DNA of 63,722 nt, filler included, from Octopus bimaculoides (GCF_001194135.2; 4 parts of 4 records of this genome joined end to end with filler, not necessarily neighbours in it); one strand, 5' to 3'. Positions 1,386 through 63,219 are shown, numbered from the whole stretch's first letter. The notes: generated by a model not told the origin, from the sequence alone. Numbers and translations are program-made.

Positions 1386-2070
1386 GTCATTATTCAGTTT
1401 TATTTCACAATTTCTTGCCAATAGAGAAAGAGACGGTTTCTAACCTAGATCCAAAAACCTTCATTGGAATTTCAACATCAACAACAGGGCATTTTTGTAT
1501 GTATGCATACGTGCAGATTTGTACGTTTTGTTTTATGTATGTCTTCTCATTCATATACTTGCATACCCAGACTTGCTCGTACATTCTTAAATGAAAAACC
1601 TCTGGAAAGTTTTACAGATTTTTACAGTTCTAGTGATGGCTTAGATCTAAATTCTTCGAATCAGCTGTTTCCTTTCTGATTTTGAGAAGACTAATTTCAC
1701 ATGATTGGTGTTTACGTAGTGTGTTACATATTCCCGTGTCCCAATAATTACAGGTATAAACATGAACTTCTAATCTGGATAGAGTAATTGCAGATTTCTC
1801 AATAGTTCTGCGTAGGTATTCTCTTTTTCACTGATCTTCAGCTTTATGCTAACATCCGCTGGGCAGCTGATTTCCACAACTGTACGCAATTTCTCTTCAC
1901 TGTGGCAAATCATTATATCATGTCTATTGTGCTTAAATTTTATTGAGGTTTTCACTGGATCATTCCACCAGTACTCCTTTTTATTATGAGTGGCTATGGC
2001 TTCCGCCATACTGTGGTTCCTTATTTCTTTGTCCTCGGTGTTATTTCATAAGTTTCTGCAGCATTTTTTA
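1386..2070 (-). mobile_element. REL-endonuclease non-LTR retrotransposon, 3' fragment ((CATA)n-associated family, copy 1)
   Basis: ORF 1770-2009 WWNDPVKTSIKFKHNRHDIMI...VVEISCP...EKENTYAEL resembles the restriction-like endonuclease domain (degenerate RPD...E...K/Y). The 3' UTR is shared with 48215-48575 and 62847-63219 and ends aataatgac followed by CATA-like repeats. Confidence 0.85.
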
Positions 2071-4189
2071 TTAGTTTAACATCAAATTTAATTGCATCAC
2101 AATCTTCCAAATTGTGTTCACGTCCCGACCCCATTCGGCAAACTAGTCGGTTGTGACAAGCAGCAGTTATCTGGATGTGTTGGAAGTGCTGTCACAGTCG
2201 TATCCTTCAATGTGGAATAAGAAAAGTTGGCAGGTCAGCTTATTTGATGTATAGTACTGACATTTTAAAATCGCAACAATCTAAGATATTTATTACTGCC
2301 TCTCCCAAAAGTTCTCAAATCCTCTGGAATTCACCTCTTATTTAAATGCAATATTCTCAAAGCCGGTTTGAAGCGAACAACTGCCTCCTCCCTAGATAAT
2401 TTCCTTCGTTAATTGACAAGAAATTGTCGAATTAATAAGTCATTAAGACATAATGATGTGCTAAAGTCGAATTAGTCCATCCCACAAACAGAAAGCAAAA
2501 TCATATTAAATTTAACCTTATATATTTTCCGGTTTTGCTTAATTAATGGTGAATGAATATAAGTAGTATAAACAGATCAATTTATGAGAATGAGGCTGTG
2601 ATGGGGAAATGCAAATTTTCTGTCTTTTTGTTTCCATGGTGATTTGTTTTAATAAAAAAAGATTGAGAAAAATGCTATTTATTGAGAAAAGCCAACGATA
2701 GTGGGGTAAAGAAAGACAAACAATTGATTAATTTATTGAGTGATTAACCGAGTAATTAAACAAGCAATCGATTAGTTGGTCAAATTACTAACCTGCTGAC
2801 TAGTAATAAGGAAATGAAATTGAGCCAGTGTGTGTGTTTATTATTAGTGTAATGACCCTCACAAGATACGATGAAAAATAATATTTAGTGAAACCAATTC
2901 TTTCAGCAGAAATAAATATTGGTAGATAATTTTGAGAAACAAAAATGATAATGAAGAAATATAATTTGAACGAAACAAAATATATTTTATTTATTCTCAA
3001 TGCGTTCTGGTTGATTCGAACGTGGTATATTTGATCGTTGTTGATGAATCCCACGTGTTATGAACACACATCTAAAGGAAGGAATATCCTTCGGTGGCGT
3101 AAAAACACCAGCAATCACATATTCTCGTACGAACCTGCTAGAACATATTAAGAATGGATAGATACATTATTGTATGGAATTTTGGTGTTCTGCGTGCGTC
3201 CCGTAAATTATTAGCGTTTCGAAACATGCATACAAATCAAGAACAAAAAATGTTTGTTGATGCATATAAATAAGTGTAGAGCTCCTACGAGTTTCATCAT
3301 TCCGATGTGGTAGCTTCAACTGAGGTAACAAGCGAGGAGGTCGAATCAGCGCGGTGTTTCTCGTGTTCCTTCACACTAGTCAGCCAGCAAATCACGCTTT
3401 CTTATAAATACATATGACCAAAAGGGAGGAAATGTCCACCGGTGGCAAAAAACAACAGTGATCAGATATCAACGTTCGAATATACCAAAATGTTTTACAT
3501 ATAGATACGTTATTGTTTGGAATTTCGCTGTTCATTCTTTTTTAACTTCGAAGATGCAACTTCTACAGATGAAAATGCAAAATAATGCTTAGTGCTGCCT
3601 TCTTACTAATTTTATCTATACTTTTAAATGACTTCCCTTTTACAGCAGTCTTTGATCAAGTTACGCAAAGCTCAAATATAGATAAATAGTAGATTTATTT
3701 CTAGTATAGCAAATCCGCTTCTTTACCGACAAGACAACCAGTAACATGTAGTAGTTGCTCGGTCTCTATTTCACTGCATTATGGTATGAATAATATTTTA
3801 ATATTTTTCATGTCAATGTTTCTCTATACTATTCTGTTTTTATCCTGATCCTAATTTTTGTGTGATCATGTGTCAGTTGCATAATTTTTATCATGATAAA
3901 TCTGTCTACCTACTAAAAATAAATAAACGAAAACTATTTGATTCCGCAAAATCTGCTCGCCTAAACGCAAATTTATTTTGTTTAATGGTTAATCCATCAC
4001 TGATGTTTCTAGTTTAAAATCTAAGAGGTCCTGAAAATTACTTGCTTAACAGAAGTATAAATCTAAATGAAAGTGATATGATCGGAATACTGGAGGCAGA
4101 TTAAATAAAACACGAAGAGATGAAGCAAACTACAAGAAGAGAGAATACGAGAAGAGTGAGAAAAATATTACAAAACTAAATTGAAAAAA

Positions 4190-5440
4190 CATTATCGGAG
4201 TAATAACATTACGCTTAATTCTATTTGTCTCAAGTATTCTCAAGTATTTATATCTGAATACAGGTTCAATTTACCTTCATCATTTTACCAATTGGCATAC
4301 ATATATCTTCTGTCCTGATAAGCTTTCCTCGTCTTATCACCATCATAACACATTTTGAAAGTCCAAACTCCATCCTGATATTATTTGAAAAAACCTGTGC
4401 AGACTGGTCTAGACTGTCTAGTTCTACTTCTCTTTATGGGAACAACTTCAATTCATCCGTGTATAGCAGGTGGTTCAGATTCCCTTTAGCACTTCTAAGA
4501 TTATGCGCCAGCTTTGTCTTCAGCAGTATTTTAATCTAGAGATCATTCCCCGCAGAAAGATCAATTAGGATACACTGCTCTCCTGAAAAATTCCTCTCCG
4601 AATTTTCACTTCTCATACTTGATTCCCTGATGTCAATTCAATATTCCAGCATTTCATACTTTTCCTTATAAAGCATATCACGTTTTCTGCTAATCCATAC
4701 ACTTCCATACTTTCTGCTAATAAGAGTAACGTATCATATCGTATACTTGAAAATAATCATTCCATACCATGCTTAGGTTTATGTGTCTTCTCTTCTAGTT
4801 TGAGATTAGTTAATCAATGAACAGCTGACCTTTCGTTGACCGGCTCCTGTTTCGTCACCCTTTAATACATTGCGGTCTACTTTTCCCTAAGTATCCATAC
4901 AGTTCATCAGCCAAAGCACTTGACAATAGTTTTCACATTAGCGGAAGACAGGTTATTGTTCGAAAGTTGGATACAACATTACCATTTTCAGGATCCTTGG
5001 CTCATAACAATGTTGTTCTCGTTGTCATCCAGCTGGGTACGTACTGAGTTTTCCTGCAAGCACTTATCCAGCTGTTGTGCTATCCTTGCATGGAGCCCTC
5101 TCAGCTTCTTCATTCAATAATCTTGGACACCAATTACAACTGGTATTCCGTTCACTCTCTTCAACCTGCGAATTTTCCCGCTTCAAATCGTCATAGTTGT
5201 TCAGTATTTCTTCTTTCTCTTTGATCCTCTTGTCACCGGGATATTTGATATGCTTGCTAATTTAGTTAGCAGGTATCTCATCTTGAGGATTAGTGACTAC
5301 AAGTCTCTTCGAGTCTTAAAAATCTTTCCTAGGATTCTTGGGAACCATAGAACGGTGCTCTTCTCAGGCCAACGTTTTTTGGCGCTAAGATGGCACGTGT
5401 TGTCAGCTACGACTTTACTTTTAACAAAATTATTATTAAT
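4190..5440 (-). mobile_element. Decayed R4/Dong-like LINE (RT region)
   Basis: Minus-strand translations across stops and frameshifts: NLSMVWNDY..YD, VKIRRGIFQ, LNHLLYTDELKL (about 4445-4478), FSNNIRMEFGLSKC. Confidence 0.85.
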
Positions 5441-6019
5441 AACGTAATAATACCTATTTAATTTAGAATTTTTATAAATATAAATTAGAAATGGAAACTA
5501 AAATAATAAATTGTACAATCAAATTAATTAATCATTAAATGATAAATTCAGTTTTATTATTTTATACAAAGAAATAACACATCTTGTAAATTACAGCTGT
5601 TTCAACAACATTAAGAAAGACAAGTTTTTCAAGAATAATAAAATACCGTTTAAATATAATAAGGTTTCATCAGATAGAATTTATATATATATATATATTG
5701 TGTGTGTGTGTGTGTGTGTGTGTGTGTGTGTGTGTGTGTGTGTGTGTGTGTGTGTGTGTGTGCGTCTGTGTGTGTGTTTGTGTGTCTGTGTGTCTGTGTG
5801 TACGTACAATGGTGATGGAAACTGGTACAAGAAATCCACAAAGAAATATCTTGAGAGGAAACCATTAAACAGGAATAACGTGTTCCAAATGTGATCCTCC
5901 GATAATAGGTTATCAACATAAGGGAAGAATATGTGACCCAGATAAGGATAAGAGTACTAGGCATAGTAAGTGTTCATTCTTTTGGGCTTAACTAACACAA
6001 ACCAAAATAAAAGAGCTAA

Positions 6020-62246: not shown

Positions 62247-62346
62247 NNNNNNNNNNNNNNNNNNNNNNNNNNNNNNNNNNNNNNNNNNNNTTAATTAATT
62301 AANNNNNNNNNNNNNNNNNNNNNNNNNNNNNNNNNNNNNNNNNNNN
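62247..62346. other. Artificial scaffold-join spacer N44-TTAATTAATTAA-N44
   Basis: Identical to the two earlier spacers. Confidence 0.95.
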
Positions 62347-62846
62347 AGTGAGCTTAATACGTGTGGAGATAGGGTCGCGATTCATTCACGAATTACGAGT
62401 TCAATCCCCATGGTGCTAGCTCTTCAGATCGCCTCTATCCATGGCACAAATACGCTCAGACGATATGCTGCAGGAATATATTGGTGTCATATCCTGTCCA
62501 GCCTGCCTTATCCCCTTTTGCTTGCTGAAGAGCGAAGACAGCGTGAACACCCACCGATTTGACAGTTGCTATATTAAGTGCTGCAAGACCTCTCAATCTC
62601 TCCCAGGGAGTGAACTCAGCGGGGTTACCGGTTTAGGCAGCAAGAACTCGTCTATAAAAGAGAATGTACAGTTACAGGATATGTATTCAATAGTATGCCT
62701 CACAGAAACTAACTTGTGAGTGATTATATCTGCAGTAACATTCATCGATATGCTTCTGTTTCTATCTCCATTCATGCTACATACAGACTCATAACCCAAC
62801 AAGAAACGCAGACGCATACAGATGTATGCATACATACAAACATACA

Positions 62847-63219
62847 TGCCTAAATACTATCTTAAGAAGTAAGGCTTCTCAAAACTAGAAAGGAGAAAGC
62901 TAATTCGAAGACTACAGATCCAATCCATCACTGGAACTGTAAAAATCTGTAAAACATTCCAGAAGTTTATCATTTAGATATATATGAGTATGTCTAGATA
63001 TGCGACTATATGCATGAGAATACATACATAAAACATACAAATCTGTTCACATTCATGCATACATACATACATACATACATACATACATACATACATACAT
63101 ACAAACAAAAATACCCTGTTGTTGATGTTGAAATTCCAATGAAGGAGCCTAGGATCTAGGTTAGAAACCGGTTCTTTCTCTATTGGCAAGAAATCTTGAA
63201 ATAAACTGAATAATGACAT
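62847..63219 (+). mobile_element. (CATA)n-associated REL LINE, copy 3 (5'-truncated)
   Basis: CLNT..KK.GFSKLERRKLIRRLQIQSITGTVKICKTFQKF plus the shared 3' UTR. Preceded by catacatacaaacataca, followed by (CATC)n. Confidence 0.88.

Follow-up and report, generated by a model that had tools for sequence, protein, structure and literature searches.

An R4/Dong-type retrotransposon family of Octopus bimaculoides found mostly within same-strand (CATA)n repeats

Among retrotransposons that lack long terminal repeats (non-LTR), Dong is described as targeting (TAA)n (PMC7998251, PMC3812793). Here we describe a related family from Octopus bimaculoides, family A, three fragments of which lie in a window of 63,722 nucleotides (GCF_001194135.2; four stretches of the genome joined with filler), and whose copies mostly have (CATA)n on the element strand at either end. 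Like Dong, DongAg, DongBg and the ostracod Dong of the R4 clade, family A combines a single frame encoding a reverse transcriptase (RT) and a restriction-like endonuclease (REL) with a microsatellite target (PMC7998251, PMC3812793). The Dong group is further reported to carry a Myb/SANT-like N-terminus without zinc fingers (same sources); family A likewise shows no visible zinc fingers, and its Myb-like domain is only suggestive. The reported target of the group is (TAA)n, whereas family A is flanked by (CATA)n, and Dong in the strict sense, defined by (TAA)n, does not include it.

Long interspersed nuclear elements (LINEs) of the Dong-R4 type are abundant and catalogued in octopus, with counts and activity given (PMC9115989, PMC13282606, PMC8967140), and family A is probably among them. 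The excerpts of these three papers, with a term search of the supplement of PMC13282606 included, state no target sequence. WaldoAg1/2 and WaldoFs1 of the R1 clade target ACAY microsatellites (PMC3812793), which include the CATA repeat seen at family A. Waldo, however, belongs to a lineage with an apurinic/apyrimidinic endonuclease (APE) and family A has a C-terminal REL-type domain, so that any target held in common would have arisen by convergence. Togen (NeSL-related, (TG)n) and microsatellite-specific HERO families are REL elements with microsatellite targets as well (PMC4640811, excerpt), but of different clades and with different repeats. R2 has N-terminal zinc fingers and a 28S ribosomal DNA target, neither of which is found in family A, and is the model for the mechanism proposed below. 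The literature searched, which did not extend to Repbase and Dfam, gave neither a CATA nor a CTTA target for R4/Dong; the excerpts of PMC13586686, PMC13580325, PMC12988792, PMC5389967 and PMC3124438 hold nothing further on targets. What is new in the probable targeting of CATA is the target itself; the strategy behind it is known and the mechanism is not novel.

The three pieces in the window derive from an R4/Dong-type non-LTR retrotransposon, each being a dead copy that is truncated at its 5' end. As a first-pass annotation of the window had proposed, they are copies of one element with a common 3' end: they are homologous 3' fragments with pairwise identities of 75-80% and an identical terminal base, the shared terminus ...AATAATGAC lying at window positions 1386 (-), 48215 (-) and 63217 (+). 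Since they are located on three different stretches, they are unlinked. Copy 1 (from G000:C11:21086922) codes for a REL-endonuclease remnant, in agreement with the REL-type LINE that had been claimed; a Pfam scan of its peptide returned no credible match. The features are as follows, reference positions being those of the family A reference described below.

1350..1385, minus strand: 3' flank of copy 1, CATA-like but degenerate
1386..2044, minus strand: copy 1, 5'-truncated family A fragment (reference 3404-4071; endonuclease remnant and 3' untranslated region, UTR)
48136..48214, minus strand: (CATA)n array 3' of copy 2
48215..48576, minus strand: copy 2, 5'-truncated family A fragment (reference 3705-4071)
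48327-48342: internal CATA tract of copy 2
48577..48622, minus strand: (CATA)n array 5' of copy 2, on the element strand (TATG as displayed)
62829..62846, plus strand: short CATA run 5' of copy 3, same strand
62847..63217, plus strand: copy 3, 5'-truncated family A fragment (reference about 3730-4071)
63058..63101, plus strand: (CATA)11 internal to the 3' UTR of copy 3, a tract that is an insertion site in other copies
63218..63268, plus strand: (CATC)n array 3' of copy 3

Two boundaries moved in the process: copy 1 starts at 2044 and not at 2070, and copy 3 ends at 63217, running into (CATC)n, and not at 63219. The 3' flanks had been read as CATA, CATA and CATC, which holds for copies 2 and 3, while the CATA of copy 1 is degenerate. 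The 5' CATA reported at visible truncation points is likewise present at copies 2 and 3; alignment to other genomic copies, however, makes the truncation point of copy 1 visible too, at 2044 and without CATA, and the tally in the window is two of three rather than two of two. The internal (CATA)n noted in the 3' UTR is real, with 11 units in copy 3.

Genome-wide, 5' junctions of family A were scored for a perfect CATA run of at least 12 nt (or at least 8 nt) within the 40 bases upstream. For the background, 20 stretches chosen at round coordinates gave 17,874 control windows, of which 0.55% carried CATA of at least 12 nt and 1.95% of at least 8 nt. A 34-base 3'-end pattern had 260 exact matches, the first 70 of which in genome order formed a 3'-end set; in 25 of these the junction fell in or past the internal UTR tract and was uninformative, leaving 45 usable. 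On the element strand, CATA of at least 12 nt preceded 27 of the 45 junctions and of at least 8 nt 31, as against 0 and 1, respectively, on the opposite strand. This corresponds to an enrichment of about 100-fold over the control (binomial p 1.5e-49); the first-pass annotation had reasoned that 5' flanks unenriched for CATA across the genome would point to tail slippage only, and enrichment is what the tabulation found. Runs of at least 12 nt were also present at 17 of 27 junctions in a first BLAST-chosen set (one dropped for N, two moved to other sets), at 11 of 20 in a second (two dropped for N, eight with junctions outside the locus) and at 22 of 29 in a 5'-end set of near-full-length copies (one dropped), with none on the opposite strand in any of the four sets. 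One mis-chained locus (L047) was scored as negative, and two (L129 and L155) have a common flank and may be non-independent.

No enrichment was seen for CA, TG, TA or TAA repeats at family A 5' joints, and TAA runs were absent from all 121 scored 5' joints and all 70 3' flanks. Full-length and truncated copies were alike in 5' CATA frequency, and 48 of 66 CATA runs ended within 5 nt of the joint. Because the 5' break points are spread over 3.4 kb (reference 482 to 3879), a span in which the reference has no 8-nt CATA run, the 5' CATA flank is not element sequence. On the 3' side, 56 of 70 copies continue after the final C with ATA and 46 with ATAC, and in all four public sequencing runs the loose 3' ends of the element read TATG (strand as presented); loose ends at the 5' start in other organisms amount to just 10-15 contigs per run, with an agreement of about 0.5. 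The target thus flanks the element on both sides, on a fixed strand and in a fixed phase, as is characteristic of a sequence-specific non-LTR element. At 33 direct 5' joints, element and array overlapped by a mean of 2.3 nt versus 0.79 under the null, a difference that BLAST extension may inflate. Target-site duplications are unreadable because the flanking arrays have drifted.

Family A has thus very probably inserted preferentially into pre-existing (CATA)n by target-primed reverse transcription, with a fixed (TATG)n phase and microhomology joining upstream. By analogy with R2-type elements, the endonuclease would nick the strand that reads (TATG)n, in a fixed phase, and the RT would prime at the nick on the 3' end of the RNA, with CAUA pairing perhaps helping; the Myb-like domain may contribute target recognition, and the complementary DNA would be joined upstream via 1-5 nt of microhomology.

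The earlier suggestion that the arrays were present before insertion is supported by nested insertions in the internal (CATA)n of older copies, which involve a second family, B (144 exact matches to its 3' motif), the sister of A with a Shimodaira-Hasegawa-like approximate likelihood ratio (SH-aLRT) of 99. At two loci (L040, L192) a B fragment interrupts the internal (CATA)n of an older A copy, both halves of which are retained; this host copy therefore supplies the empty site, and the array pre-existed. Family B itself carries 5' CATA of at least 8 nt at 16 of 27 junctions and of at least 12 nt at 9 of 27, with none on the opposite strand (3 of 30 dropped). Full-length A copies are located in the tails of B (L103) and of A (L106), and the eight joints between an A end and an A remainder that were examined are ambiguous.

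Several observations weigh against insertion into pre-existing arrays. As many as 26 of 92 truncated copies, copy 1 of the window included, lack an 8-nt CATA run at the 5' joint, and only 7 of these 26 joints adjoin another repeat and 4 keep an alternating purine-pyrimidine remnant. Several joints without 5' CATA nevertheless have 3' CATA, whose tail may be partly element-derived unless arrays were lost. The A-in-A cases (L216, L217) could be duplications, which leaves B-in-A as the clean nesting, and at three loci (L044, L157, L130) the upstream A copy ends at the internal tract with no downstream remainder, as could result from template jumping, internal priming or deletion between tracts. 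An empty orthologous site was not found for the one insertion tested (L135), which is shared with organism B, contigs from two public runs of that organism bridging element and flank; a run of organism C did not bridge. Finally, in two relatives described below (L256, L258) the arrays reach the contig ends, so that no unique flank is visible. CATA specificity is accordingly strong but incomplete.

The rival that survives best, unlikely as we consider it, is that the element itself makes the 5' CATA, by a jump of the RT to the CAUA tail of another RNA, by slippage, or by expansion of a duplicated seed, any of which would need few matching target bases. Head-to-tail stacks separated by CATA (L006, L007, L013, L030), copies with 3' but not 5' CATA and copies terminating at the internal tract would all fit such an origin. 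Most 5' arrays, however, lead into unique DNA and not into another 3' UTR, the same behaviour is seen in full-length and truncated copies, and B lies within an A tract whose two halves survive. A looser target, of CAY or alternating purine-pyrimidine repeats among which CATA dominates because the tail is CATA, has very little probability: a few joints do follow (CA)n (L002, L021, L028) and (CATC)n forms the 3' flank at copy 3 and L012, yet (CA)n, present in 1.3% of the control as compared with 0.55% for CATA, stood at only 1/45, 3/27, 1/20 and 1/29 joints in the four sets.

Other repeats of the same genome served as controls. A near-complete, classic Dong-like copy lies in the window at 23410-26750 (+) between TAA runs, and is 34% identical to family A over 165 RT residues. 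Of 29 further copies of this TAA-type Dong, 23 had TAA at the 3' end, and of the 19 5' joints that could be scored, 7 had it as well (10 joints lay outside the locus, and reference gaps disturbed some assignments), while CATA was found at none of these 29 3' ends or 19 5' joints. Three other repeat families (four queries) had CATA or TATG at 0-3 of 58-82 copies per flank. Unspecific insertion in which CATA is just the 3' tail and microsatellite-adjacent copies are passively retained, as proposed for Drosophila Waldo-A/B, is largely refuted and scarcely credible, since, common as CATA arrays are (57 of at least 12 nt in 181,101 control bases) and although passive accumulation is described (PMC3812793, excerpt), it fails to explain why TAA-type Dong and the other repeats lack CATA enrichment, and it sits poorly with the strict strand bias, the strength of the enrichment and the lack of enrichment for the commoner CA, TG and TA repeats.

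Family A is a ~4.07-kb element with a single open reading frame (RT, CCHC, REL). The reference is a full-length but broken copy of 4,071 bases (L063), along which fragments of a single frame can be traced; 30 loci retrieved with its 5' part mostly have a common start, upstream of which come a few variable bases and, beyond these, an array. The RT domain matched RVT_1 (E 2.6e-22), and its best match among solved structures was R2 (E 1.9e-19); insect Dong-like proteins matched far more strongly than R2 (E 6e-54). Identities were 47-58% to unnamed proteins, with an Argonauta protein among the close matches, and 32-38% to insect proteins; no protein named Dong or R4 occurred among the homology matches. 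A C-terminal CCHC knuckle is present in L104 and its aligned homologues together with R-H-D and PD..E..K, which we take to be the endonuclease motifs. Pfam gave only a weak zf-RVT match, and no APE endonuclease matched in five stretches scanned, the domain being C-terminal and REL-type instead. No zinc fingers were visible in N-terminal translations or the alignment. The N-terminal 82 residues were modelled as three helices (pLDDT 82) whose top structural matches were SANT/SLIDE/Myb domains (modest best Z of 6.7, rmsd 2.3, 67 aligned residues); Foldseek found no match to the model at E<=0.001, and a Myb/SANT-like nature of the predicted domain is suggestive only. The clade placement that had been called for is R4/Dong-type, by architecture and affinity, within a tree that has no named anchors.

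The family is old and abundant. Thirty copies differ by 4.5-9.8% (median 6.5%) from the column majority, and none of the genomic copies examined was intact. A 685-base query returned 7,309 genomic candidates, 40 of which were scored; three family A fragments in 181 kb of control DNA suggest, very roughly, tens of thousands genome-wide. In one copy (L095:1455-1600) folding of the 5' UTR yields a long stem (z -3.75), but an Rfam ribozyme search of three full-length 5' ends gave no match, and no hepatitis delta virus or hammerhead pattern could be fitted to the 5' end by eye. In one RNA run, 172 reads fell on a 501-base stretch, mostly over a neighbouring repeat, and are not informative for expression of the element. 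Three copies (L096, L116, L123) keep both ends around large internal deletions and are possibly non-autonomous derivatives. A third subfamily (L253), 73% identical to A, also has CATA at its end. At L116 and L118, the same repeat end adjoins the array just upstream of full-length copies, which suggests that the CATA array subsequently received an insertion of a DNA transposon that targets TA. In L060 (oriented 426-1385), a different REL element, presumably HERO-like from its motifs, has inserted into the UTR of a family A copy at a point not within the CATA tract.

One metagenome scan yielded 18 relative loci, 11 of which had their ends inspected. Two (L256, L258) have intact frames and (CATA)n at both ends, and one (L257) an intact frame and (CTTA)n at both ends; (CTTA)n further occurs at the 5' end of L254 and L255 and at the 3' end of L260 and L262. 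No such repeat was found at the inspected ends of L261, and the distant relatives L263, L264 and L268 have (TAA)n. The intact frames comprise 1153-1217 codons, and the relatives flanked by tetranucleotides are 51-55% identical to family A. In a quick, midpoint-rooted tree of 52 rows (SH-aLRT only; eight metagenome rows too short and left out), built from unnamed homologues and insect proteins with no named R4, Dong, R2, NeSL, HERO or CRE references, all seven CATA and three CTTA rows fell inside one 33-row clade (SH-aLRT 100), the CATA label requiring two changes; L263 lay on the insect side, on a long branch. Families A and B belong to a wider subclade, separate from TAA-flanked Dong, whose members end in either (CATA)n or (CTTA)n. 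We lean slightly towards the view that this is an undescribed, widespread R4/Dong branch which left TAA for four-letter C-A/T-T-A repeats, underwent more than one switch between CATA and CTTA, and coexists with TAA-type Dong in a separate microsatellite niche, carrying the target in its own 3' UTR so that copies stack, and with intact members present.

The way in which REL retrotransposons come to use a different target has practical weight, because R2 proteins are under development for gene insertion. Relatives that are ~50% identical, with targets one base apart (CATA versus CTTA) and with frames still intact, offer a direct route to domain-swap and template-swap tests; if the branch is as proposed, its intact members would make it possible to ask directly which of the two determines the target, the Myb-like domain or RNA-DNA pairing. 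For octopus genomics, CATA targeting would account for the clustering of LINEs in microsatellites and their mutual stacking, with two Dong lineages partitioning one genome by repeat type.

Around the TAA-type Dong copy of the window lie further TAA-flanked Dong-like fragments at 23003-23390, 26757-26965, 32510-33110 (-) and 42877-43260, the near-full-length copy being stacked with 3' fragments; the pieces at 32510-33110 and 42877 may be further families. A repeat of ~220 bases resembling a short interspersed nuclear element, with (TAA)n on both sides, occurs at 22669-22886, at 31828-32045 and at a dozen or so other positions in the window, and was possibly mobilised by TAA-type Dong. Elsewhere in the window, a further RT in a decayed state, weakly similar to R4-type proteins, lies at 4269-5212 (-). 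Two open frames at 44813-45857 (-) have 143 and 232 codons, and the latter resembles a piece of a Penelope-type RT by eye. In a control stretch (L181:8715-9878, +), a 388-codon frame with CCCH-type zinc fingers is a probable host exon.

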